A stretch of 64,000 nt of DNA from a virus (Duplodnaviria > Caudoviricetes). The stretch lies in the IMG/VR virus record IMGVR_UViG_3300046167_000798, one strand, 5' to 3'. The first letter of the stretch is position 1. Each line of letters starts with the position of its first letter. The translations under genes were made by a program, and so were the position numbers. Below, in pieces: positions 1 to 42,215 of the stretch. Below the pieces are notes generated by a model, which was not told where the DNA came from, did not search any database, and saw only the letters and a program-made list of their open reading frames with translations.

Positions 1-3000
1 CTCTTTCAAATGAAACTCCTTTAAGTGATGGGTCTTTTTGTAACGCATCAAGTAATTCTTTATCTAAGTTACCACCTAACCTTGCTTGGAATCTTAAAGC
101 TCTTAGTTTTCTTAATGGGTCTTCATCAAATCTTTCTGATGCCTTACCAACTGTTCTAATGTTTTTCTTTTTAAGGTCTGCAATACCTCCAACTAAATCA
201 ACTATCTCTTTTCTATCAATATCATAGAACAAAGCATTGATAGTTAAATCTCTTCTTCGTACATCACCCTCTATATCTGTATAATCAACCGATGAAGGTC
301 TTCTACCTTTACCAATATCTTTTCTAAACGTTGCAATTTCATGTCCACCAACCATTACAACTCCGAATGATTTACCAACCTCAACAGTTTTCATTCCTAA
401 ATCTTTTGCAATCTTTAACACCTCATCTGGTTTTGCATCTGTTGCTAAATCAAAATCCTTTGGTGATTTACCAAGTATAGCATCTCTTACTGCTCCACCT
501 ACTACATAAAGTTTCTTACCATTCTTTTTAAATCCTTTTTGGATTTTAATGATATCAGATGGTACTCTTAATTTAAAGTTTTTACTTTCATCTAATCCAC
601 TTCTATCGTGTTTAGAGAATTTACCTAATTTATCAAATGCTCTAAATGATTTTAGTTTATTTACTTTTTTAGGTGTCATTACAGATAGTTGTTTATATCT
701 CATGTGGTTTTTAACAATGTAAAATACATTTGCTGGATTACCACCAACTGATTCTATAAACTTTTTATACTTCTTTACTAAAGATGCTGATACTTTCTCA
801 TGTCCAAAGTGTGTAATGTGTCCTTTCTTTGGATGAATACCTGCAGTTTCATCTTTTCCTATATCATGGAACATTGCTGCTATTGCAATATCAATGTCAT
901 CTTCTTTGATTGAACGATTTACAACTACGATTGTGTGTTTAAGAACATTTCCTTCAGGATGTTTATCTACTCTTTGACCAAAGTTTTTTAAATTGTAAAC
1001 TCTCTTTTGTAAATCAGAAGGCATCTTTTTAAATAAGGATTTGAAATCGGTGATTCCTAATTCTTTTAAACTTTCTTCAATTGGTTCGTATCCTCGTTTC
1101 TTAGTATCCTTTTCTTTTTCTTGATGTCCACCTAGTTTACCATCATCATCAAAATCTATTGTATCTGGTTCAGCTATTGAACCTCTTTTTGCATATGATG
1201 AATATGTATGATGTTTATTAAAATCTTTTTCAGCTTCTGATGAAGGTTTACTACTCTTTACAGATTTAAACTTATCTGTTACCTTTGTTGGTAACGATTC
1301 CTTTACTACATCTTCTTGTTTTTTACCTTGAAACTTATCAAATTCTTTTTGCCTAAGAGCTGGTAGAAATCTAAACTTAGCTCTTTTCATTATTCTACCC
1401 TTTTTTCTCACTACGTTCTTATGAACTACTTGTGATTGTTTGATAGTTAAATCAGATTTCTTTTTATCAGGAAATAAATCTTTCAAAAACTCATCATAAA
1501 CTTGTCTGTATGCCATTTTGTAAGCAATCTTTTTAAGTTTAGAAAGAGGTTTTCTTCGTTTCATTGTTCTGGCTCTTCTTCTTGCTATTTGAGCTTTCTT
1601 ACCAGCCATTGCCGCTTTTCTTCTCAATTTATCAGCAGGTCTCATTTTCCCTCGTTCATCGAGTTCTTCATTCAAACCCATTTTCTCTTTCCAAGAATCA
1701 AAAGCATCAAAATCGTACTCTCCTTTTTGAGAATCCCATCCACATGAATGACATAAATACTTTTCACTATCATCAGATTCTATTTCCCATTGGTGATTAC
1801 ATTTTTCACACTTAACTTCTGTTCCTGCAAGTTCTGAAATGAATCCTTCTTTAACCATTCTAAAGGTAACCACTTTTCTACCATTGATTGTTGGCATTCC
1901 ATGTTCATCTTTACCGATTGTTTTAACAACTGTTTTCTTGTTCTTAAATCTACCAGTCATAATAGTATCCCCAACTTTAATTGGTAGTACTATATTTTCA
2001 TTTAAAGATGCTTCGTATTCTTCTTGGGCTTTTTTATCACCTTTTTGAGAATCTAGTGATTGTTCTTTTTCATCTTTGTTAATATCCAATCCCTTTACCA
2101 ATTCGTAACCAACTAATGCCGCTTTACGAGTTACATGCTTAAACCATTTAGAATAAGCATCTGATGAATAGATATCAACTTGGTTAGTTGCAGTTGTTGT
2201 ACCAAGTACACCTGCTGGAAATGGAGTTACTGCTTTAACAGGTCCATTTGGGTATGTTGGATGGTCATAATAATCTTCTAATTCTTTAGTAGTAATCATA
2301 TTTACCACTTCGTATCCAATTCTCTTTGCTCTCTCTACATTTATCTTAGAGAAAACATCGTAGTTTGGAAACATGAAGTTTGGCCCATCATCTGCTTGAC
2401 CACTTCCCATTTTAGAACTCTCATTTAACAACCACTCTTCAATCATCTCTTTAGAAATTTCAATTCCCTCATCGAGTTTATCAGTAATCATACTGAAGAT
2501 AGTTGCATTAAACTTTCCATACGCTCTTTTCTTAAAGAAGTTCTTTTTCTGTTCATCAGAACCAACTGATAAACCATTTCTTACTTCTGTACCACTTACT
2601 GCACCACCAGACATTGGAGCTGCATAAACATATCCTCTATCTCTATATCCTTCCGATGGGTCTCCTTTATATGTTTGAAAGTATTTTCCACTATCAGGTC
2701 TTAATCTACTTTTATCTTTCTCGCCAACAACAGTTACAAATGCAGTTGTTTCTTCATCGAACTTTTTAAGAATTTCTGTGGGTTTGTATGGGTCTCTAAC
2801 TTTATGTATTTTGGATTTTGGAATTCCAAACATAGTAGTCATAATTTTCACCTTTTCTTTGAAGTTAAAAGGTGATTTAGGTAATTGTACCTTATCAGAT
2901 GTACCAACATAAACATTATCCTTACCGAACTTTTTGACAAGGTGTTGGTAAGTACCAGCATGTCCTTTGTGCATAGGCTGAAACCTACCCACATAGATAA

Positions 3001-29566: not shown

Positions 29567-31034
29567 CTATTGTGAATTATTAGGATTATATACACCATCT
29601 TCAAAGTGTGTAATTTCACCTGATTTCATTGGTACATCGGGTATTGTTTGGTCAACATCTATTCCTTGATACCAAACTGCTAGTTCTGGAAATGTTTTAC
29701 AAAAATCCTTACCTCTTCGTTTATCATATTGTTCATAGAATGATTTGAAATCATGAAAGTGAGTATCGTTCTCATCTTCAGTAGTAACATGACCTGTTTT
29801 AACTACTTCTATATAATCTACCAATCTTTCTATTTGTGCAATTTCACCCTCACTAAATAATTCGTAAAAATCTTTATCTTGTTTTCTTGTTTCAAACCAC
29901 TTTGATAGTTTTTTGTGTAAAAATACTTTTACATCAGTTGGTAAAGATAATGGAGACATAAATGCAGGCCATCTTAAGATATTAAAATCAACATTAGGTC
30001 TATTTGGTCCATATTTTCTTTTTAACACAATCATATCATCTAAGAATTCATCTATTGAGAATAAACATAGTGAGTTAATTGTCATCATTACTGTTAAAGA
30101 ACGAAATATATCTTTATTTACCCCTTCAAGAAACGCAACCATATGACTTCTCCATTCAGGATAAATCAACCCATCTCTAATATAATCAGCATGAGGCCCA
30201 TAAGCTTCATTTGAAGTATATAAATCAAATTCTTTAATTGGTAATTCATAAGAAGCATCAATTAATCTTTGGATTCTTTTAAAGTTACCACCTAAGTTAG
30301 AATTTACAGCCAATCTAAGTTTATCAGAAGGATATCCTTTCATTTTATCTAAGAAACTCCAAAAGTTTGGAGATGCACAAGGTTCACCACCTGTAATTCT
30401 TATTTCTTCCAATCCTCCTTCAATCAAATCAGGCCACCACTTTAGAAATGCCTCTACATAAGGATTTTGTTCGAGGTATTTACCATTTGCATCCGCCCAT
30501 GAACCATTGTTTTGATATGCACCAGCTGATACTGATTTAAACTTTTGATAAGGTCCGAACTTATCAATATCTTTACCCCAAGTAGTGGAGTATCCAGCAT
30601 TACAATAAGAACACGCAAAATTACAAACTCTATCAAATGAAGCTTCTATTGTTTTTGGAATAATATCAACATCTGCTCCTAGTTCTTTAATCTTTGCAAT
30701 ATCTTCTTCTTTATAGATTTTAGATTTGTAAACCCTATCACCAATATTATCTCTACCAATATCTTCAATCTTCCAACAATAAGAACATTCAGCAGGTCGT
30801 GTTCCTTCCAACATCATTTTTCTCTGTCTTTTAGAGAAGTCTGTATTATGTAGTTCTTGTGGTCTATCTTTTAACTTTTCTGCATCGATTGGATGTGGTA
30901 AAGGTAAATGACATGAGTTCTTAAAACCCATGACCTAAGTGTAACGATACATTGTACCATTTAGCTGCACAAAAACTTGGTGATATACTGTTGAGATTTT
31001 TATCTCTCCATTTTCTTAAATTATCTGTTGACAT
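29567..31034 (-). CDS. Radical SAM protein with N-terminal twitch/SPASM-like Cys cluster, paralogue 1; +1 indel at 30927-30929
   Basis: True start ATG 31034 (MSTDNLRKW..FCAAKWYNVSLHLGH) joins GFKNSCH after deleting one base; CSYCW, CNFACSYC, ITGGEP. Confidence 0.85.
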
Positions 31035-31782: not shown

Positions 31783-33199
31783 TTTAATTCATTTATAAAT
31801 TTTCTTAATTCAGGAAATGTTTCATAACAATCCAAATCTCTTCTTTTTTTGTAATCACTAATATAGTGTTTAAATTTTTTCTTTCCTATATCAAATGTAA
31901 TATCTGATTTATTATCTTCTATGAACATATCCTTTATTCTTGATATCTTTTCAATTTCTTTTAATGAAAATCCAGTATCACCTATTTCTTGCATATCATA
32001 TGAATTTAAACTTCTATACGTTGAAAAAAACTTCATATACTTTTCTATCTTTCTCAAAGTATGAAATATCTAAATATCCTTTCAACAATCTAAAACTTAA
32101 AAAATCAGGATATCTTAAGTAAGAAGTATCAAGTATTATTGGAGAATTCCAATATCTTTCAGTATTGAAAGTGTTTTAGTTTGTGTTGATAAATTTTTCT
32201 AACTAATTTTTCATAGTTGAATGGAGAAAATATATTGAAAGTTGACATTACAACAATAGTAACCTTTGGTAACTTTTCTAGTATCTTATCTATATTATCA
32301 AATAGTTGTTTAAAATCTAAACCTGTTCTGATAAACTCTGCTTGTTCTCCATATGTATCAACTGAAGTATATATAATAAATTCTTTTACTCTTTTTTCAT
32401 TGATTATTACAGATGCCTTTTCAATCAATCTATCTATTAGTTTATCATCAACACAAAGATTACTATTAATAGAAAGTTTTAATTTTTTATTTGGTGTTTC
32501 GGTTTCTATTATTTTATCTAACACTTTAAACGTATCTTTTGATAAAAGAGGTTCACCACCTGTAATTCTAAAAGTATCCATACTCTTATATAATTCAGGC
32601 CACCATTTCCAAAATGCCTCCACATAAGGATTGTGGTCTTTTTGAAGAATCGGCACCATATCTTCTTTTTTTAGTTGTTCTAATGAATTAAATCCATCAC
32701 CAGTAGAAAACTCTCCATGTTTTTTCATCTCCTCTACCCACTTAGAAGAATATGATGGGCCACAATACCCACATTTAAAATTACAAGTATTAGAAAATGA
32801 TGCCTCTACATACTTAGGTAAATAATCAGCTTTCCAATCTATATTTTTAATTTCTTTAAAATACGGTTTTGACCAATCTTCCTCTGATTTAAAAACTCTA
32901 TCAGAATATGAATTAGAATTATCTTCTACTTTCCAACAATAACCACATTCTTTTGGTCTTTTGTTTTCCAACATTTCTTTTCTAGCTTTTTTCTTTTGAG
33001 AACTATTATGAAGAGCTGTTGGATTTCTTTGTAATTCTCTTAATCCTATTTTATGAGGTGCAGGATGATGACAAGAATGAGTAGAACCATCATGTAAGTG
33101 CATTGTAACTTGTGTCCATTTTGCTAAACAAAATCCACAACCAACCGAATCTAAATTCTTTTTAGTTTCTTCAAAGTTATTTCCGATAACTTTACTCAT
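31779..33199 (-). CDS. Radical SAM protein with N-terminal twitch/SPASM-like Cys cluster, paralogue 2; +1 indels near 32169 and 32051
   Basis: FCLAKW..SCHH..CGYCW, CNFKCGYC, ITGGEPLL. Repair gives ..KHFNTERYWNSPIILDTSYLRYP..YFEKIEKYM..TFPEL, matching the C-terminus of paralogue 1. Confidence 0.85.
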
Positions 33200-33900
33200 T
33201 TTTTAATATTTTTTATTAACAGTTCAGACCACAATTTATGACCATCTGATAACCAATGGTTACCTTTACTTTGTGATACTTTATTTTCAAATAAATAATC
33301 AACCATATTTTCATCTATACAATTATTTGTATATTTTTTTATTGAATAACTATTATTAAATGTATCTGATATAAAATATGAAATATTTAAGTTTTCTAAA
33401 AGTAAAACTATATATTCAATTAATCTTTCATTCTTATAAACAAGTTCATAATCGTTTAAGAAAAAATCTCTACAAATTGAATGCCATTCTTTAAATTTTT
33501 CAATAGATGTACTTTTAAAATTTTTAGTAAAAAAATAATCTCCATGTGCATCATAACTTGTATAATTTATGTTGATAAGATTATCTTTAAAGGAATGTAG
33601 TTTCCTAGATTCACCAGATAAATTTATTAGTACAAATTTTGGATAATTATCAGTATTTTTTATATAATCAATGATATCATAAATAATCTTTTCATTTGAG
33701 TTTCCTTCACATCCAATATTTACATAATCTAAATTTAAATGTTTAGATATTAAATATGGAAATGTTTTATCATATCTATATTCATATATGGATTTTTCAA
33801 CTTTAGGATTATGTCCATCTTTATATAAATCTAATCCTATTTCTTCTTCAATTTCCCATCCTATTGAATGTGAACATCCTGATGATAACAAGTAACTCAT
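33196..33900 (-). CDS. SGNH-like protein (GCS variant)
   Basis: SSGCSHSIGW, GNSNE, GNHW; same layout as the other two SGNH-like ORFs. Confidence 0.5.
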   Translation of the reverse strand: MSYLLSSGCSHSIGWEIEEEIGLDLYKDGHNPKVEKSIYEYRYDKTFPYLISKHLNLDYVNIGCEGNSNEKIIYDIIDYIKNTDNYPKFVLINLSGESRKLHSFKDNLININYTSYDAHGDYFFTKNFKSTSIEKFKEWHSICRDFFLNDYELVYKNERLIEYIVLLLENLNISYFISDTFNNSYSIKKYTNNCIDENMVDYLFENKVSQSKGNHWLSDGHKLWSELLIKNIKK

Positions 33901-35345
33901 AACTTAATATTTATGAATTTTGCCTTAGGTGTAATTTCTTCTATACTAACTAATTCATAATTAAGTGAGTTCATTCCATCAGATTTATAATCCCAAGTAC
34001 CACCTTGCATTTCCTTTACAAATCTTCTTTCATTTCTTGCAGTAGTTTCTCCTTTTGCCCAAACATCTTTACCATGTTCATTTTTTACCAATCCTTCATC
34101 TTTATGGTCTAAACAATACATTCTACCCTCTACTCTATGTGGTACAACTGTGTATGGTATTTTAATATCATCTTTATTAAATTCACAATTAAAATTTATC
34201 CCATCGTTATCATTGTCGGATTTATCCACCACTAAACCATCTTCAAAATCATAATGAAGGGATAACCCATCATCTGAATAATCTTCATGTAAAGTACTAA
34301 CCTCATCTGCAGTTAATGCTCTATTCCACATTTTTAAATCTGCAATATCTCCTTTAAACCATTTAGATGGGTCATTATCTGAAACTGATGTTGTTGTTCC
34401 TAAATAATAATCAGTATTACCATATCTTTTTAACATACCTTCAAATTCAAGAGGTGAATGTGTACCAGTTCCCCATCGTGCATCTGATTCTTTTCCATTC
34501 ATATACAAGTGAATATTATTTTCATCAACTACTAAAGTAATCCAACTCCATTGGTTTTCATATCGCTTCATCCATGAATATAAATGTTTTCGTGAATTAT
34601 TCCATAGTTGAGATGTATATGCTCTTGAATTATTATAACTCAATCCATAATCATATCCTGGTCTACGAAGTATTGGATATTCACAAAATCTCCTATCCAT
34701 ATCACCAACTAACCAAACAGGTACTTTTTCTTCTTGTTGGTGTGCTCTAACTAATACTGAAATTGTATGTGAACGAGATGTTAAATTTCTAAGTTTTCGT
34801 GTACAAGGAATTTGTACATATGAATTTTTACCATTAAATGAAATGTAGTTTTGTGTATTATTTTTAAAATCTAAATGGGTTTGATTGGCATATCCTTCCA
34901 AATTACATCTCCAAAATAAATCATCATCTTCCATACCCCAATCCCAATAATCATTACTGTATCCATTGGTTTTCTCAACTTGTTCTTTTGAAAATACAAT
35001 TGCTCCTCCAAAATATTCTTCATATTTTAGTTGGTAGTTCATTTGTGAAATATTAGTTGCAATATGTCTTGGGTTTTCTTTTGGAAAACTATAATCTGCC
35101 CCACCACCTTCTTCAGGTATCATATCGATATCATGCCAAACAACATAATCACATCCATCTTCAAATGCATACTTTGCCGCAATGTTTTTTGTTGCTCCTC
35201 TGTTAAATAGTTTATCATCAACTTGATGTCCAAAATAGATATGATAATCTATACCCTGTCCATCAAGATATTTACCAATCTTTGGTATAAACTCTTTTAA
35301 GTGAGCTTCTCTATTTCTATATGGAACACAAACTCCTAACTTCAT
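33897..35345 (-). CDS. GT7 galactosyltransferase-like enzyme with inserted LamG domain, paralogue 1
   Basis: VPYRNR, FNRG, HDIDM (DxD), YFGG, WGMEDDD; ~240-aa LamG-like insert (ISFNG..WITLV..IHLYMNG..KGDIADLKMWNRAL); then GRMYCLDH..DGMNSLNY. Confidence 0.85.
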   Translation of the reverse strand: MKLGVCVPYRNREAHLKEFIPKIGKYLDGQGIDYHIYFGHQVDDKLFNRGATKNIAAKYAFEDGCDYVVWHDIDMIPEEGGGADYSFPKENPRHIATNISQMNYQLKYEEYFGGAIVFSKEQVEKTNGYSNDYWDWGMEDDDLFWRCNLEGYANQTHLDFKNNTQNYISFNGKNSYVQIPCTRKLRNLTSRSHTISVLVRAHQQEEKVPVWLVGDMDRRFCEYPILRRPGYDYGLSYNNSRAYTSQLWNNSRKHLYSWMKRYENQWSWITLVVDENNIHLYMNGKESDARWGTGTHSPLEFEGMLKRYGNTDYYLGTTTSVSDNDPSKWFKGDIADLKMWNRALTADEVSTLHEDYSDDGLSLHYDFEDGLVVDKSDNDNDGINFNCEFNKDDIKIPYTVVPHRVEGRMYCLDHKDEGLVKNEHGKDVWAKGETTARNERRFVKEMQGGTWDYKSDGMNSLNYELVSIEEITPKAKFINIKL

Positions 35346-35752
35346 AGTGTATCTGCAATTAGTTTTTTAAATTTGGTTGTACTCCAACCATGGTCTCTGT
35401 TTAAATAATGAATTGGTATATCTAATTCGAAACCTGTATATGTTTTACCTCGATAATCATCTCCTAAGAATCTGATATCTGGTGATAATCTTTTTAATAA
35501 ATCTACCAATTCTTTTTCATAAGTATAATATGCAATTCCATTTATAAATCTGATTGATGTTAGGATTTCTGTTCTTTCTTCTTTAGTAAGAATTGGTTTC
35601 AGTTTATGTGGTCTTTCTATTGATGGGTCTGTATGTAATAAAACTATAAATTGTTTACAATATGATTTACATTCTTTAAACATTTTTATATAACCTGGAT
35701 GTATTACATCAAAGTTTCCAGCAATTACTCCTACATCGTATAATGGCTTCAT
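35342..35752 (-). CDS. Cytidylyltransferase-like (TagD/HldE domain II)
   Basis: AGNFDVIHPGY, LGDDY, HGWSTT. Confidence 0.85.
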   Translation of the reverse strand: MKPLYDVGVIAGNFDVIHPGYIKMFKECKSYCKQFIVLLHTDPSIERPHKLKPILTKEERTEILTSIRFINGIAYYTYEKELVDLLKRLSPDIRFLGDDYRGKTYTGFELDIPIHYLNRDHGWSTTKFKKLIADTL

Positions 35753-37200
35753 ATCTCTATCGATAGTTTAGTTACTAGTTCGTTTACATCTATACTAATT
35801 TCTTCATATCTTAAAGTATTTAATCCTTCTATTCTAAAATCATCTATATCATTTCTAACTTCATTATAATACTTTATTTGGTTTTTTCTAGTTTCTTTAT
35901 GTATCCATTTATTACCAGTAGAAGAGTTAGTTTTATGTTTCAATGATTTAAAACGAGAATTTCTACGATATGGCTTTGGTAGAAATGTTTTAAACGATTC
36001 ATTTGTTTTATATAAATATATATTGTTTAAATAAACATCATATTTTCCACCCAAATCAATTGAAGTAGTTGATGATGAGGTCTGTGGTAAAATCTGAGTA
36101 TATAAAAATTCACTTGATTTGAAATTACCAAAGTTTCTAAGTTTTGGTTTTGTTGGATTTTTTGATATTTCAATTATCTCATCATCAGTAAGAGCAATAT
36201 CGTATATCTCGATACCAGATATTAATCCATAAAAGAAATCTTTATTTGTTGGTTTACCATTTCCAATTCCAACATATATTTCATCAGATGATAATTGTAA
36301 TATTTCATTATTCATTTTTTCAATACCAACCAATTCACCATTCATGTAAAATTTTAATGTATCTGAGTTTTCATAAACCATTGTTAGATGTACCCATCTT
36401 TCACCAACAACTTCAGTTGCAACAGAATATGGTTTTTTATCTGAATCATAAGCCTGACAGAAGAATCTACGAAAGGAATTGTAAAATAATCCAATGTTGT
36501 ATCCTGGTATAGATACTATTGGAAATTCATCATAATCTTTATTTTCACTTAAACTTATATCACTTGGTTTTACCATTACTGATATTGTAAACTCATCTTC
36601 AAGTAAATGTAATTTTTTATTTGATGAAAATTTTATAAAAGAATCGTTTCCATCAAATTTAAAAGATTCAATTTCTCTAATATTTTCATCTCCCAATGAT
36701 TCACTATCTAATTCCAAATTAGATTCAATACATCTTATTAATAAATCATCATCTTCAAATCCCCACCCCCAATATTCATTAGAGAACCCATTGATGGTTT
36801 TAAAATCTTCTTTAGTAAACATAGTTACTCCACCAAAGTAATCAAAAAATGTTGTTTCGTAATCGTGTTCTTGTAAGTGTGTTGCTAAATGTAGAGGTTT
36901 ATCTGAATAAGAATAATCTACATCTTCAGGTAACATATCAACATCATGAAATACAAAATAATCGCACCCTTTATCTAAGGCATACTTATATCCTGCATTC
37001 AGAAGCTTACCTCTGTTAAAAGGTTTATCATCTGCCTGTTCAATGATGAAGATTTCGTAATCAATATCCTTAATATAATCTTTCATATGAGATAAGAACC
37101 TTTTCAGTTGAGTTTCTCTATCTCTATATGGAACTATTATACCAAGTTTATGATTTACTTTCTTCTCCTTGAGTTTCTGTATTCTCTTGGATTCTTTCAC
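35749..37200 (-). CDS. GT7 galactosyltransferase-like enzyme with inserted LamG domain, paralogue 2 (start uncertain)
   Basis: VPYRDR, FNRGKLLN, HDVDM, YFGG, WGFEDDD; LamG insert (FKFDG..WVHLTMV..FYMNG); EGLNTLRY. Confidence 0.85.
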   Translation of the reverse strand: MKESKRIQKLKEKKVNHKLGIIVPYRDRETQLKRFLSHMKDYIKDIDYEIFIIEQADDKPFNRGKLLNAGYKYALDKGCDYFVFHDVDMLPEDVDYSYSDKPLHLATHLQEHDYETTFFDYFGGVTMFTKEDFKTINGFSNEYWGWGFEDDDLLIRCIESNLELDSESLGDENIREIESFKFDGNDSFIKFSSNKKLHLLEDEFTISVMVKPSDISLSENKDYDEFPIVSIPGYNIGLFYNSFRRFFCQAYDSDKKPYSVATEVVGERWVHLTMVYENSDTLKFYMNGELVGIEKMNNEILQLSSDEIYVGIGNGKPTNKDFFYGLISGIEIYDIALTDDEIIEISKNPTKPKLRNFGNFKSSEFLYTQILPQTSSSTTSIDLGGKYDVYLNNIYLYKTNESFKTFLPKPYRRNSRFKSLKHKTNSSTGNKWIHKETRKNQIKYYNEVRNDIDDFRIEGLNTLRYEEISIDVNELVTKLSIEI

Positions 37201-37414
37201 TACCTCTTTCTGGTCTGTTTGTTGTTCCTACTGTTTTAGCTTTTGCAATCTGATAGAATTCGTTCAAATACCATTCCAAACGTTCCTGCCACATATCTGC
37301 ATCTAGTTCATAAACCCAATCGTTTATATCACCAATTGAACCAGCTATTGATTCAAGAGCTTTAACCCCTCTTTCTTCGAGTGATTTATTGTTCGTTGTC
37401 TCTTTCTTTGCCAT
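37148..37414 (-). CDS. Hypothetical protein (88 aa)
   Basis: Open frame with normal codon use; no motif recognised. Confidence 0.65.
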   Translation of the reverse strand: MAKKETTNNKSLEERGVKALESIAGSIGDINDWVYELDADMWQERLEWYLNEFYQIAKAKTVGTTNRPERGSERIQENTETQGEESKS

Positions 37415-37943
37415 AATTGTAATTTAGTTTTTTGTTGTAAATTAATTCTTGTTTTAGTTTATCAAATATAAAACCTTCTAATCCTTCTTTATCAATAGGG
37501 AATGAAGTTTCTTCTATCCAATCTTTTAATCTTTCGGGTTCCCATTTTAAGTTTTCTAACTCATCATCTATTTTTTGAGGCTCCCATTGTTTAGTATCTA
37601 TTTCTGCATTTATTTCTTGTAATCTATATTCTATTTTTTCTTTTTCTACTTTTAAATCATCTAAACGAAATTTTATATCATCTCGTTTTACAGTTTTCAT
37701 TTTAATATCTTCATTGATATCATCAATAGTAGTTTGTTTATCATGCCATCTTGCAAAATATTTTCCTATATTTGCAGTTTTTGAGTTCCTATTTCTTAAG
37801 AATAGTGTTTCAACTATTAATATAATTTTTAAAAAAATTGATTTATCTTGTTGACCTGGTTCTGTTAAATCTTTTAACTGAGTATCGATATCTTCAAGAT
37901 GTCTTACAACCTTTTCGTTATGTAACAATTCTAATAAGTTCAT
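37386..37943 (-). CDS. Hypothetical coiled-coil protein (start uncertain)
   Basis: Heptad-like K/E-rich C-terminal half with a WEP..WEP repeat. Confidence 0.6.
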   Translation of the reverse strand: MNLLELLHNEKVVRHLEDIDTQLKDLTEPGQQDKSIFLKIILIVETLFLRNRNSKTANIGKYFARWHDKQTTIDDINEDIKMKTVKRDDIKFRLDDLKVEKEKIEYRLQEINAEIDTKQWEPQKIDDELENLKWEPERLKDWIEETSFPIDKEGLEGFIFDKLKQELIYNKKLNYNYGKERDNEQ

Positions 37944-39378
37944 AATTTTTTTTATTTTGTATATCTAATATACTGTATTTTAAAGTATTTAATCCTATTT
38001 GTTTATAATCTAAACTATTAGTAACAACATCGTGAAAAAAAATATCCGCATTTTCAGTTATATCAGGATTATAATCATAGTATTTTTTTATAATGTTACT
38101 ATCACCCTTATGTACCAATGATTTATATTCCGAATCTAATCGTATTGGTAAATATATTTCATTTGGAGTATATGTTATAGTATTATTTGATAACTTACCA
38201 TATATTTTTAAATGATTTTTAAATTTTCCAGAATCAAGTATAAGTGTATTTTTATATGTAGAATTATAATTTAAATTTATAGATGGAATAATTCCATATT
38301 TTGATTCAATATCATCTAATGATGAATTTCCTTTGTTATATAAAAGAGTAATGATATCTGAAGAAATACATAAATCAAAAGAAAGTATATTTGAAATAGA
38401 AAGAGATGTTTTATCATCTGATATTTTTATACAATGTTTTCTGTAATCATATATTTCAAAATCTTCTTTTAATTTTATTTCTTTGGTTTTGTTATTTATT
38501 GATAATCTTAAAGTTTTATCAGTAGCATCATATGAGTAAACACAATGATTCCATCTATTTCTTGAATACGATAATATAACCTCATTGTGATTATTATTAA
38601 TATCCCAAATCTGTGCAATTAGTTCGTTTCCATTACTAAGAAACAATCCACTATCACATCCTTCAAAAACAAATAAGTTCTTTTTCGGTTGTCTATTTGT
38701 ATCATCATTAAACCAAAAAGATATACTAAATGAATCTGTTAGCATTTTTTGTGATAAGCTGTTTAATGTTCCATAAATATAATCAGATTTTCCAAATTTA
38801 TTACAATGTATTTGTTGAATTCTTTTTTCTGCAGATGGAGATACTTTTTCTATCCTATATGGAAGAATATCTAATTCATCATAATTAGAGTAAACATTAT
38901 TTAAATCATAGAATTTTTCTAAATAAGCACCACTTCTTTGTAATCTATAAAGTAAATCTAAATCTTCAAAACCATAACCCCAATATTCATTTGAGTATCC
39001 ATTAGCATTTTCAAAATCTTCTCTACTGATAACGATAACTCCTCCAAAGTATTGTGGATAAGGTAATTCACCTCCATGTGCTTCTACATTACTTGCTAAA
39101 TGTGTTGGTGATTCAGGATAACCATAATCACACTCATCATTCATTGGCAACATATCTACATCATGAAAAGCAAAGTAAGTATATTCTTCTCCAACTTCTT
39201 TAGTAACTACATTACATAGTTTACCATAGTTAAAGGGTCTATTATCTGTTTGTTCTGCGATAAAAATAGTGTAATCGATTCCCTTATCTTTGAGGAATTC
39301 GTACATATGAGGAACAAATACATCTAAGTGTTCTTGTCTATCTCTATATGGAACTATTATTGCTAACTTATCTTTCAT
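37918..39378 (-). CDS. GT7 galactosyltransferase-like enzyme with inserted LamG domain, paralogue 3
   Basis: VPYRDR, FNYGKLCN, HDVDM, YFGG, WGYGFEDLD; LamG insert (FSISFWF..WNHCVYSYD); GLNTLKY. Confidence 0.85.
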   Translation of the reverse strand: MKDKLAIIVPYRDRQEHLDVFVPHMYEFLKDKGIDYTIFIAEQTDNRPFNYGKLCNVVTKEVGEEYTYFAFHDVDMLPMNDECDYGYPESPTHLASNVEAHGGELPYPQYFGGVIVISREDFENANGYSNEYWGYGFEDLDLLYRLQRSGAYLEKFYDLNNVYSNYDELDILPYRIEKVSPSAEKRIQQIHCNKFGKSDYIYGTLNSLSQKMLTDSFSISFWFNDDTNRQPKKNLFVFEGCDSGLFLSNGNELIAQIWDINNNHNEVILSYSRNRWNHCVYSYDATDKTLRLSINNKTKEIKLKEDFEIYDYRKHCIKISDDKTSLSISNILSFDLCISSDIITLLYNKGNSSLDDIESKYGIIPSINLNYNSTYKNTLILDSGKFKNHLKIYGKLSNNTITYTPNEIYLPIRLDSEYKSLVHKGDSNIIKKYYDYNPDITENADIFFHDVVTNSLDYKQIGLNTLKYSILDIQNKKNYELIRIVT

Positions 39379-40221
39379 TTAGATTTTTACTATAACATTT
39401 GAAAGTTCATTCCACTTTGTATAATCAAAGTAAGAATTATCTTCCATTTTTTCAAACATAAATTCAGGATTATTTATATCGATTTTCCAATCGTTTACCT
39501 GAATTCCTCTGTACATTTTTTTGTATTCCTTCCAAAAGGAATAATCTTTTTTTGTTTCAGATACTTCTTTTAATCTTTCAAGAACTGTCGAATCCCACTT
39601 GAAGTGATGAACTTGGATAAATCCTTTTTCAAGTGGATATCTTTTAGGATGATTCCATCCTCGTTCTCTCCAAGTATCCGTATCACCAATCACAGCAAAG
39701 TGTTGACCAGGTGTTACATCCACAGAACCTTTCATTACACAACATTTGTTTGGCATCGCTCCACTCATAGGATATCTAAAAAATCCTGCAAGTGGAAACG
39801 ATTTCCAAATATTAGTTTCTTTTGTTACCAAAGGAAACTCTCCATCCTCTCCTATCCTATCGAGGAATCCTCCTGTGATGAACTCCCATCCATTCTTATC
39901 ACAATCTGAAATCATCTCTCTAATATCAGCTGGATAAACATGAAGTTCATCATCGTCCGAAACCACCCACCATTCATCGGGTTTAGTTTGCTTTACTTCA
40001 TTATATAATTGAGTAACTCGTTCCCAATTAAATTTTTCTTCTGTTACTATCTTGTGGGGTTTAATACCAAGATTAATTACATCTTCTAAAATACCATCTA
40101 AGGTATGTTGTCTGTAAACTACTACATAAATTTCATCTACAATATCTTTGTAGTGATTTATCATATGTGGTAGAAGTGTAGTGTTGTGTCCAACAACTGT
40201 AACCAAATTTACTTTTTGCAT
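39379..40221 (-). CDS. GT2-like (GT-A) glycosyltransferase
   Basis: LLPHMINHY, WWVVSDDDE (DxD), KCCVMK..GQH, HHFKW. Confidence 0.65.
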   Translation of the reverse strand: MQKVNLVTVVGHNTTLLPHMINHYKDIVDEIYVVVYRQHTLDGILEDVINLGIKPHKIVTEEKFNWERVTQLYNEVKQTKPDEWWVVSDDDELHVYPADIREMISDCDKNGWEFITGGFLDRIGEDGEFPLVTKETNIWKSFPLAGFFRYPMSGAMPNKCCVMKGSVDVTPGQHFAVIGDTDTWRERGWNHPKRYPLEKGFIQVHHFKWDSTVLERLKEVSETKKDYSFWKEYKKMYRGIQVNDWKIDINNPEFMFEKMEDNSYFDYTKWNELSNVIVKI

Positions 40222-40988
40222 CTTTGTAGAATTGTTAGACCTGTTGATGCTGGTTTAGATTTAAATATACCATTATTAAAAAAGTTGAAAATTTCCCAAT
40301 CACTATCATCACTCAGTTCTTTTATTAATTTAGAAGGGCCGTTGGTTATTTCTTGATGGTCATCTTTTTTTATTTCATCTGTAACTATTAATTCTTTTTC
40401 AAATGATTCATCTGTATCGTGTATTGATATAATACCATTTGGTGAAAGTAGTTTAGAATATAAATCAAAATCTTGTTTTACATCTTTATAAGTATGTCCA
40501 GCATCTATATGTAAATAATCAATTTTAATATCTTCTTTAACGAAAAAGTTATAATATGCATTTTCAGTTGTTTCTAAAATTACTCTTGGAAAAAATGTTT
40601 TTCTAAAAAATGAATCCTCATTAATCCAATCAGTATTACCACCAACTCCATTAGAAGCATCTACTAAGTAAGTTGCTCCTATATCTCCCCAATTATAATC
40701 TCGGTTACCTTCAAATATTTGTGAATCATATAAATCAACTCTTGCCTGTGTCATTATTCTTGGAATAAATCCACCACCACTTCCTAAACATACACATACT
40801 TTTGCTCTCATGTAATGTATAATAGAATATATTAACAACCCATCACCCAAAGATAAATCAGTTGCACCATGTGTCCATCTATATGGAACTTTTTTTAGTT
40901 CAATATATTCCTTTTCATTAGTGTCGTATTCTTTAGATTGATTGTGTGTAAAAAAATCTTTTATAAAGTCAAGATTTAGAAGTGTCAT
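40209..40988 (-). CDS. Class I SAM-dependent methyltransferase (Methyltransf_24-like)
   Basis: VCLGSGGG, IDYLHIDAGHTY, ISIHDT. Confidence 0.85.
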   Translation of the reverse strand: MTLLNLDFIKDFFTHNQSKEYDTNEKEYIELKKVPYRWTHGATDLSLGDGLLIYSIIHYMRAKVCVCLGSGGGFIPRIMTQARVDLYDSQIFEGNRDYNWGDIGATYLVDASNGVGGNTDWINEDSFFRKTFFPRVILETTENAYYNFFVKEDIKIDYLHIDAGHTYKDVKQDFDLYSKLLSPNGIISIHDTDESFEKELIVTDEIKKDDHQEITNGPSKLIKELSDDSDWEIFNFFNNGIFKSKPASTGLTILQRCKK

Positions 40989-41018: not shown

Positions 41019-42215
41019 TTATCTTTCCAATAATTTTTTTACAGCAGTTACCCACTTATCTTTATAATCATATCTCATCATATAGGATTTTATTTTATTA
41101 AATTCAAATAATCTTTCTTCGTGTGTATCAAATAATATTTTTTTATAAGCTTTATCAAACTCATTTTTAGTTGATGCTCTATATTTGTAATCTAATTCTT
41201 TTCCCCAATCTGTGTGTATTATTGGCAATTTACCGAAATCAACTGCCTGAAAAATAGAATATCCAAATGGTTCTTTAAAATAAGCTCCATGAAATATTCC
41301 AAAATCTTTTTTCATAAAAGTAGTATGAATACCAGGATTCCATTGAAAAAATTTTGTATTGGGGAAAGTATAAGTTGTTGAATCTTTTAAATTTTGAAAA
41401 TCATAGTAATCAGTTAATACATATCCCTCATATCCATGCATCCAATGAATACACTTTCTTGATTCACATCTTGATGCAAATCCTATCTTACCATTATCCA
41501 TATCTGTATTTAAAGAGAGGTTGTGTTTAAATTCATAATAATTTGGTACTTTGTAAGTATAATTTGGAAACCTATCTACAATCTTAGATGGATTATTTCC
41601 AATCCAAACTCTTTCTTTAAATGTTTCAAAGTAATCATCACAAAATTTCTCATCTACTTCTGTATTGAATTGTAACCTTTTTAATTCAGGATATTCATCT
41701 AATACTTCTTTCATTTCAGTTGGATATGCATGTACAAAACATAATTCAAATTTATCTTCATGTTTCCATATATGTTCTCTTTTGTGATAATGAGAGTGTA
41801 ACGAGTATATATAATCACAATCAACCAACCACTCCTCTGTTATATCTACATCATCAAAATGAAAATGATATTCTAATCCTTCAGGTAAAGAAGATGGATT
41901 AAAATTAGGTGGTCTTTTAGAATCTATTAATAGTTTCCATTTATTTCTACCTTTTAATTTAGTCCATACATTTTGTAAAAAATTATTTACCCAAATATCA
42001 GCACCACCCTTTATTGTATTTCCCGCTCCGGTACATACTAATATTTTTTTAGTAGTTTCTTTTTTATTTTTTACAGGAACAATATGTGAATTTTCTGGTA
42101 ATTCTCTATTGATTATAGAAAGTATTTCTTCTAAATTTATAATATCCCCCATATCGGTAAGATAATTAAATAACCTTTTTTTAATATTTTTTGCTGGAAC
42201 ACCTTTTATTATCAT
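41019..42215 (-). CDS. GT-B (GT4-like) glycosyltransferase
   Basis: GGADIWV near the N-terminus; EPFGYSIFQAVDFGKLPII (E-x7-[E/Q] motif). Confidence 0.7.
   Translation of the reverse strand: MIIKGVPAKNIKKRLFNYLTDMGDIINLEEILSIINRELPENSHIVPVKNKKETTKKILVCTGAGNTIKGGADIWVNNFLQNVWTKLKGRNKWKLLIDSKRPPNFNPSSLPEGLEYHFHFDDVDITEEWLVDCDYIYSLHSHYHKREHIWKHEDKFELCFVHAYPTEMKEVLDEYPELKRLQFNTEVDEKFCDDYFETFKERVWIGNNPSKIVDRFPNYTYKVPNYYEFKHNLSLNTDMDNGKIGFASRCESRKCIHWMHGYEGYVLTDYYDFQNLKDSTTYTFPNTKFFQWNPGIHTTFMKKDFGIFHGAYFKEPFGYSIFQAVDFGKLPIIHTDWGKELDYKYRASTKNEFDKAYKKILFDTHEERLFEFNKIKSYMMRYDYKDKWVTAVKKLLER

Follow-up and report, generated by a model that had tools for sequence, protein, structure and literature searches.

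The 64,000-nucleotide stretch of viral DNA analysed here (IMG/VR record IMGVR_UViG_3300046167_000798, Duplodnaviria, Caudoviricetes; hereafter, the window) encodes three paralogous proteins in which a glycosyltransferase (GT) core of family GT7, the family of B4GALT1, is interrupted by a domain of the laminin G-like (LamG) type. They combine, in an undescribed and phage-specific internal arrangement, an enzyme family and a binding fold that are each already known. Taking function, location and target jointly, it is proposed with moderate confidence that the LamG domain acts as a built-in acceptor-recognition module of the GT7 core, within a cytoplasmic glycan assembly line whose likeliest target is the virion.

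GT7 Cores Interrupted by a LamG Domain

The genes lie on the minus strand, as do nearly all the long open reading frames (ORFs) of the window (G+C content ~28%), and occupy positions 33897..35345 (paralogue 1, P0001, 482 residues), 35749..37200 (paralogue 2, P0002, 483 residues) and 37918..39378 (paralogue 3, P0003, 486 residues, with the most diverged insert of the three). Their products share 29-32% identity, and the Pfam families Glyco_transf_7N, Glyco_transf_7C and Laminin_G_3 are detected in all of them alike. Scores amount to 58.8-83.4 bits for Glyco_transf_7N (58.8 in P0001; cut-off 27), 64.9-74.5 bits for Glyco_transf_7C (69.5 in P0001; cut-off 23), and 55.6, 68.0 and 29.8 bits for Laminin_G_3 in P0001, P0002 and P0003, respectively (cut-off 27.6), the latter match spanning residues 171-350 in P0001. 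The Glyco_transf_7C match covers only profile positions 1 to 61-65 of 78, ending where the insert starts. Regarding P0002, its residues 16-163 match B4GALT1 (2ae7_A) with an E-value of 3.9e-34 in a phmmer search of the PDB, and residues 436-483 weakly match the end of that same chain, DGLNSLTY included. This protein starts at a GTG codon preceded by the Shine-Dalgarno-like sequence AAGAGG. Many of its database orthologues are recorded with 445 residues (92% coverage) rather than 483, gene callers having probably missed the GTG and started at Met39, with loss of the first β-strand of the fold.

Alignment of the three phage proteins with ten uninserted GT7 relatives (~220 residues) delimits a single clean insertion between the segments '...RCxxxGxxxxR' and 'RxGRxxSLxH', where the uninserted relatives have 0-2 residues. 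The inserts comprise residues 157-404 of P0001 (248 residues; 34134..34877, minus strand), 167-412 of P0002 (246 residues; 35965..36702, minus strand) and 156-413 of P0003 (258 residues; 38140..38913, minus strand), the last of them with an additional linker and, at 340-361, a long helix. An initial annotation, made from the sequence alone, had already read the three genes as GT7 proteins with LamG inside the catalytic domain, and had placed the insert of paralogue 1 at 34161-34883; ORFs, Pfam matches, comparison with the uninserted forms and structure models all bear out this architecture, and the boundaries obtained here for paralogue 1 agree with that estimate. It had also described how the C-terminal GT7 motifs resume behind the insert, which holds for L.H (at H414, H422 and H423 in P0001, P0002 and P0003, respectively) and for G[LM]N[ST]L.Y (at 457, 459 and 462), while the acidic residue, [DE], that it set before the latter motif does not extend to paralogue 3, which reads IGLNTLKY.

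The insertion point is found between the strand that follows the WGxEDD helix and the strand that leads to the metal-binding His. LamG (~230 residues) emerges from the tip of this β-hairpin, ~10 residues ahead of the lid hinge with its metal-binding His, and the turn that it replaces presumably corresponds, by our mapping, to residues ~334-338 of B4GALT1. When a profile of the insert was run against the window in six frames, fibre-like ORFs included, no further LamG domain was found.

Predicted Structures of Core and Insert

AlphaFold2 models were built for P0002 and P0003 on alignments of 57 and 62 diverse members, respectively, the architecture of P0001 resting on Pfam and on the full-length alignment. 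The model of P0002 reached a predicted local distance difference test (pLDDT) value of 92.9 and a predicted template modelling score (pTM) of 0.87, and that of P0003 values of 93.2 and 0.82. With Foldseek aligning the N half of the core alone (152 columns, root-mean-square deviation, rmsd, 1.3 Å), the gap-tolerant VIA-align was used for this discontinuous fold. Bovine B4GALT1 (1tvy_A) was then superposed on P0002 with Z 28.4 over 219 residues (model 9..483, chain 131..398) and on P0003 with Z 27.1 and rmsd 1.8 over 213 residues (model 1..486, chain 178..398), while Z 26 was obtained for B4GALT7 against the phage models. Because B4GALT1 superposes across both halves, up to its residue 398, the C-terminal 70-80 residues are predicted to complete the GT-A fold.

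The intervening sandwich occupies model residues 175-405 in P0002 and 188-406 in P0003, and aligns end to end with LG and pentraxin domains. Closest to the P0002 insert are the LG domain of PAPP-A (Z 22.6), 4dqa (BACOVA_03559; Z 21.7), PTX3 (Z 19.9) and a neurexin LNS domain (Z 17.7), and closest to that of P0003 again the PAPP-A LG domain (Z 21.1) and 4dqa (Z 20.4), with a dimethylformamidase module also among the nearest structures. Pentraxins as a group give Z 17.6-19.9 over the whole pentraxin domain (5-204/206), and neurexin and laminin LNS domains Z ~17. As modelled, the insert is a complete two-sheet jelly-roll sandwich of LamG/pentraxin type, a fold that binds proteins and lipids besides sugars. 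The proposal of the initial annotation depended both on the insert being a β-sandwich and on the C-terminal segment completing the GT-A fold, and it stands on the two points in these models. Circular permutation of LamG, considered on account of a YDF...D.S...N.G strand located after the Pfam match, was rejected, since sequential structural alignments cover whole pentraxin domains.

Regarding the animal enzymes B4GALT1 and B4GALT7 (CAZy GT7; PDB 1TVY, 1NF5, 2AE7, 4IRQ and 3LW6), both halves of the fold superpose with Z 26-28 and the N core is 32-39% identical. On the contrary, the phage proteins are devoid of membrane anchor, stem and the first ~45 residues of the catalytic domain, their cores beginning at the equivalent of bovine residue ~174-178 and animal residues 131-177 being absent. 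Their lid is, in addition, ~10-15 residues longer than that of B4GALT1, and LamG, of 246-258 residues, stands in place of a short hairpin turn.

Catalytic Residues

In B4GALT1 the metal site is formed by D254, M344 and H347, the latter at the N-terminal hinge of a lid loop that comprises residues 345-365 (PMC7565966, PMC12074965). The phage proteins share with the B4GALT enzymes the DxD, FNRxKLLN, YFGG and WGxEDD motifs, the lid-hinge His and the G-L-N-S/T-L-x-Y tail. P0001 displays HDID71-74, YFGG111, WGMEDDD136-142, H414 and GMNSLNY457; P0002, HDVD85-88, YFGG121, WGFEDDD146-152, H422 and GLNTLRY459; and P0003, HDVD72-75, YFGG110, YGFEDLD133-139, H423 and GLNTLKY462. HD[VI]D, YFGG and the counterparts of D318 (Asp) and H347 (His) either do not vary among 57 diverse members or reach at least 90% conservation. 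Specifically, H85 and D86 of the DxD motif (bovine D252-V-D254) are the same in all 57 sequences, while conservation of D88 is 90% or higher; the D318-equivalent Asp of the WGxEDD loop is invariant in the family alignment (A2), where the H347 equivalents (H414, H422 and H423) attain at least 90% conservation, and a further alignment (A3) shows no variation of this His. The M344 position is occupied by Cys or Ser in the phage proteins.

FNRGKLLN is present in all three paralogues, as is the Tyr at the Y289 position (within YFGG), and this retention makes a hexose donor (Gal or Glc) likely. Acceptor-side aromatics equivalent to Y286, Y289 and W314 are also retained, with P0003 carrying Tyr for W314 and, next to this change, Leu for D319. 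Judging from these sequence features, the three proteins are probably active, soluble, metal-dependent GT-A enzymes of the GT7 family.

Divergence of Inserts and Origin of the Trio

Segment by segment, the three paralogues are 42-53% identical in core N, 26-32% in core C and just 19-25% in the insert, so that the initial annotation was right in describing the inserts as more diverged than the cores. The same trend is observed among orthologues, where the insert exhibits the highest nonsynonymous substitution rate (dN), and where its ratios of nonsynonymous to synonymous rates (dN/dS) of 0.20, 0.27 and 0.60, against 0.06-0.12 for core N, are rough values because dS is ~1, near saturation. The trio occurs in identical order in 14 of 15 related IMG/VR loci (L001-L014), the fifteenth (L015) being a 7.6-kb contig that matched the N-terminal core only. 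In the twelve closer loci (L001-L012) orthologues are 74-88% (P0001), 66-88% (P0002) and 52-79% (P0003) identical to those of the window, and L013 and L014, although distant (≤40% to any window paralogue), each have three copies. The paralogues are thus anciently separated and jointly conserved, as would be predicted if each had a job of its own.

In a tree of the cores only, the inserted forms fall into three paralogue clades, with deep nodes unresolved. Two apparent minimal forms within the inserted clades (P0231 and P0239) proved to be truncated fragments, and the clade test was run without them; in this test, the tree with the inserted forms held together was the best found (log-likelihood, lnL, +50.9; approximately unbiased test, p-AU, 0.897). 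This result is consistent with one insertion followed by triplication. A eukaryotic origin was also considered and is not needed, similar minimal GT7 cores being present in many bacterial genomes.

Conservation within the insert bears on what it is for. Family-wide conserved residues correspond to the LamG core motifs (F182, G184, N287, G311, F323, G325, I327, D382 and P410), and positions specific to the P0001 or the P0002 class were too few at an 80% threshold to map a specificity site. The insert might accordingly be regarded as a structural or scaffolding module that stabilises the minimal core, braces the lid or holds the pathway enzymes together, as would suit conserved residues confined to fold-core motifs, cores that start only at bovine ~174-178, pTM values of 0.82-0.87 that point to fixed packing of LamG on the core, and top structural neighbours that include non-lectins such as the PAPP-A LG domain and dimethylformamidase. 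Nonetheless, relatives of ~220 residues with the same shortened core are widespread without any insert, which indicates that the core needs none, and a mere brace would hardly be the part that evolves fastest, or one that diverges so strongly among three conserved paralogues. A purely structural role is therefore considered rather unlikely.

Distribution and Uninserted Relatives

A word-indexed search returned 2443 relatives, the best 120 of which all contain the three Pfam families, and an exhaustive search of 1.84 billion cluster representatives gave 10,269 matches at E ≤ 1e-3. Among the best 150 representatives of the latter, 55 are complete inserted forms and 16 partial ones, while uninserted relatives of ~200-230 residues are numerous in this search. 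The GT7-LamG design is common in marine phage metagenomes, and where it occurs in ESM Atlas clusters, these bear a viral label (Uroviricota). A Bacillota cluster of 605-residue proteins in the same Atlas combines GT2 domains with Laminin_G_3.

Only three insert-bearing loci were found among 185,579 species genomes. One of them (L017; G001:C1:34794-36254) sits on a 248-kb contig of a 'Flavobacteriaceae' metagenome-assembled genome (MAG). A gene for a T4-type Gp23 major capsid protein (240 bits) on this contig marks it as the nearly complete genome of a large phage that was binned into a bacterial MAG, possibly giving a hint about the host. The remaining two loci are on MAG contigs, 23 and 25 kb long. 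Just one of 2.3 million AFDB fold clusters matched over both domains and none did in BFVD. When P0002 and P0001 were compared by tblastn with 50,697 deposited phage genomes, no match appeared even at E 1e-3, and the sole match in a DNA search of deposited phage genomes was a small nucleotidyltransferase gene that neighbours the trio. Altogether, the DNA on which the GT7-LamG architecture was seen in these searches was always that of a phage or probably so. A literature search yielded no account of an internal LamG or lectin-type domain in a GT7 enzyme; automatic Pfam annotation already places the three domains on thousands of metagenomic proteins.

The minimal GT7-like proteins (~200-230 residues; P0194, P0198 and P0212, and bacterial loci L021-L044) have the same shortened core and C-terminal tail as the phage trio and are 40-47% identical to P0002, but show 0-2 residues at the insertion site in place of LamG. 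From sequence comparison, this uninserted form is the probable ancestral one. Some of the bacterial uninserted cores carry terminal fusions, namely to PqqD, to a radical S-adenosylmethionine (SAM) C-methyltransferase of ribosomally synthesised and post-translationally modified peptides (RiPPs), to an FkbM methyltransferase, to GT2 or to a second GT7 in tandem. Two such proteins, P0258 and P0260, have minimal GT7 cores 50-52% identical to that of P0002. In P0258 the core is fused to a PqqD/RRE peptide-binding domain, whereas in P0260 (L092:5001-7631, also in L021) it is fused to a RiPP-maturation radical-SAM C-methyltransferase (TIGR03975, 427 bits), and the gene is located on a 3.3-Mb Desulfomonilaceae contig, beside an ABC2 exporter and small ORFs. 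These sequence features suggest a role in peptide maturation for some of the microbial GT7 enzymes, and the fusions with PqqD and with the RiPP radical-SAM enzyme imply that substrate-recognition modules recur on the GT7 core.

Genomic Neighbourhood

The trio lies inside a co-oriented glycan island (~3100-42215), immediately downstream of a 1913-residue fibre-like ORF and of the gene for a tail assembly chaperone. Downstream of the trio, two genes for N-terminal-twitch radical SAM enzymes are located at 29567-30931 and 32159-33199 on the minus strand (NCBIfam NF033640, 257 and 285 bits, cut-off 170), with a 243-residue ORF without assignment between them, and homologues of these enzymes adjoin the trio in 14 of 14 complete loci, as well as in L016 and L017.

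Such co-conservation, together with the bacterial GT7 cores fused to PqqD/RRE and to the RiPP radical-SAM C-methyltransferase, might point to a side chain of a peptide or protein as the acceptor, in a RiPP-like manner or directly, with LamG docking the protein and the radical-SAM enzymes tailoring the same substrate; LamG/LNS domains do commonly bind proteins. We regard this as improbable, considering that (i) the characterised GT7 enzymes (B4GALT1-7 and CSGALNACTs) all extend sugars rather than amino acids, (ii) the aromatics equivalent to Y286, Y289 and W314 are retained, and (iii) the island is rich in sugar-nucleotide and GT genes rather than in precursor peptide.

Between paralogues 1 and 2, and on the same strand, a nucleotidyltransferase of 136 residues is encoded at 35342..35752 (minus; Pfam CTP_transf_like). 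It resembles RfaE domain II and TagD, with NCBIfam matches to rfaE_dom_II and g3p_cytidyltrns that are both below cut-off, and copies 52-88% identical to it are found at the same position in L001-L012. Upstream of the trio are a GT2-like gene (39379-40221, minus; Pfam Glyco_tranf_2_4, below cut-off) and a class I methyltransferase gene (40209-40988, minus; Pfam Methyltransf_24), a pair (39379..40988) that is kept in most related loci, including the distant L013, L014, L016 and L017.

The glycan could also be built on host envelope precursors, such as O-antigen, capsule or a lipid-linked intermediate on the cytoplasmic side of the membrane, thus altering the surface of the infected cell, for example for phage exclusion. 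GT-rich 'host recognition clusters' beside the tail-fibre genes of pelagimyophages and cyanomyophages have been interpreted in this way (PMC7029224), and the nucleotidyltransferase next to the trio resembles the RfaE and TagD enzymes of envelope sugar pathways. However, a hydropathy scan of 40 ORFs (the island genes and the chaperone gene) revealed no convincing transmembrane helix, hence no membrane protein of the island as a candidate for the initiating phosphoglycosyltransferase, flippase, polymerase or ligase, and the cassette is kept across phages with probably different hosts. Considering both sides, an envelope target appears doubtful, and a virion protein is taken as the most likely one because the island adjoins tail-fibre genes and is without membrane component.

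A 398-residue protein encoded at 41019-42215, conserved and placed between the fibre genes and the cassette, shows the GT-B fold in its Atlas model, which is GT4-like (TM-score 0.63-0.70). It has no Pfam match, and by language-model features it falls near a cluster that carries PF11440, the T4 DNA α-glucosyltransferase (score 0.95). This proximity raises the idea of a cassette for the hypermodification of phage DNA by sugars, in the manner of T4 Agt and Bgt, with LamG anchoring the enzyme to DNA or to a glycan linked to DNA, and viral DNA-glycosylating GTs are indeed diverse (Pyle et al. 2024, as cited in PMC12619734). We consider it very improbable, since the genes sit in the structural, tail-fibre region, the ~40 sugar-pathway genes go far beyond the needs of known DNA glycosylation, and no nucleic-acid-binding feature was seen.

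Two further ORFs complete the surroundings. The one between paralogues 3 and 2 (37386..37943, minus strand) encodes a coiled-coil-like protein of 185 residues with weak matches to SMC/Rad50 coiled coils and no Pfam family, and is present only in closer relatives (L001-L006 and L012). The other (33196-33900, 234 residues) gave no match in Pfam or NCBIfam, nor by tblastn in the related loci. Its Atlas features are near viral clusters partly annotated as GDSL/SGNH hydrolase or DUF6071 (0.95-0.97), and its product may be a glycan O-acyl esterase or transferase.

Proposed Function in the Light of Known Systems

In the proposed mechanism, the catalytic core would take a uridine diphosphate (UDP)-sugar and transfer it with inversion to a sugar hydroxyl, while the LamG lobe, rigid beside the lid, would recognise and position the acceptor. 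By analogy with α-lactalbumin and with the lectin domain of ppGalNAc-T, LamG may bind the growing glycan or a glycosylated carrier protein. A single insertion event would have been followed by triplication, with the paralogues kept as a set and carrying out three different steps of a pathway in which the GT2-like enzyme, the methyltransferase and both twitch radical-SAM enzymes also take part. The acceptor-selecting lectin role that the initial annotation ascribed to the insert is a plausible hypothesis.

Some enzymes of the GT-A type do carry modules for acceptor choice. The ppGalNAc-T enzymes (GT27) combine a GT-A, Glyco_transf_7C-related core with a carbohydrate-binding module that steers the selection of the acceptor. 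Their module is a terminal β-trefoil lectin of the ricin type, at the C-terminus and on a flexible linker, in Golgi enzymes of retaining mechanism, whereas the accessory domain of the phage proteins is internal and of LamG fold, so that the resemblance is functional only. The initial annotation correctly contrasted terminal lectin domains of this type with the internal one, but holding accessory domains of GTs to be always terminal is too strong, as the helix-loop-helix of the NleB/SseK arginine GlcNAc-transferases is internal to the fold. These enzymes differ in that their element is a short helix-loop-helix instead of an autonomous domain, and their GT family and retaining mechanism are unrelated. 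For them, a GT-A fold with a lid and a separate helix-loop-helix near the active site that contributes to the selection of the protein acceptor has been described (PMC6191443).

Another parallel is lactose synthase, where α-lactalbumin docks by the closed lid of B4GALT1 and redefines its acceptor through a patch formed by F280, Y286, Q288, Y289, F360 and I363 (PMC7565966). The phage LamG is likewise attached ~10 residues before the hinge of the equivalent lid, even though α-lactalbumin is a lysozyme-fold subunit that acts in trans, whereas the phage module is a LamG domain in cis, with a putative contact to lid or acceptor. Regarding the target, chlorovirus PBCV-1 glycosylates its capsid by a virus-encoded system. 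Glycosylation of capsid and tail tube also occurs in mycobacteriophages, according to Freeman et al. 2023 as cited in PMC12619734. The phage island resembles these systems in having soluble virus-encoded GTs near structural genes, with glycans made in the cytoplasm on virion proteins, a target that for this phage is a proposal; it differs from them in that they rely on other GT families, lack an inserted LamG and involve far fewer genes.

Several considerations weigh against the proposed role of LamG as acceptor-recognition module in a virion-directed pathway. The assignments of donor, acceptor and linkage are all inferential, as is the choice among virion, host envelope and DNA as target, and the placement of LamG near the acceptor pocket derives from the insertion point beside the lid hinge. 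The structural evidence comes wholly from predicted models, in which the closest neighbours of the insert are mostly non-lectins with identities of 7-18%. No binding site is conserved family-wide in the insert beyond the LamG core motifs, and its faster evolution, apart from the roughness of the dN/dS values, could simply mean weaker constraint. Finally, the late motif of T4, TATAAATA, is found 21 times where chance alone predicts 21.0, and is uninformative on expression timing.

A more specific version would make LamG the cis counterpart of α-lactalbumin, clamping the closed lid and thereby forming the site for the acceptor, with the soluble line building the glycan directly on tail-fibre or other virion proteins of abundant marine phages. 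We put it forward tentatively, as an unlikely but consequential case: if true, it would amount to a so far undescribed kind of protein glycosylation by phages, each paralogue reading a specific glycan-on-protein intermediate.

GT7 is among the best-understood GT families, one in which the choice of acceptor is reprogrammed by a separate protein, α-lactalbumin. The three phage enzymes are small, soluble and easily synthesised, which makes the question of what the glycan pathway produces (a virion glycan, a change of the host surface or something else) directly testable. The architecture is present in at least 55 clusters at 50% identity among the best 150 relatives, and the trio is a conserved marker of this large, all-soluble pathway adjoining tail-fibre genes. 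A binding-type domain built into the fold near the lid would represent a new solution for acceptor targeting in GT-A enzymes, and could provide a template for engineering.

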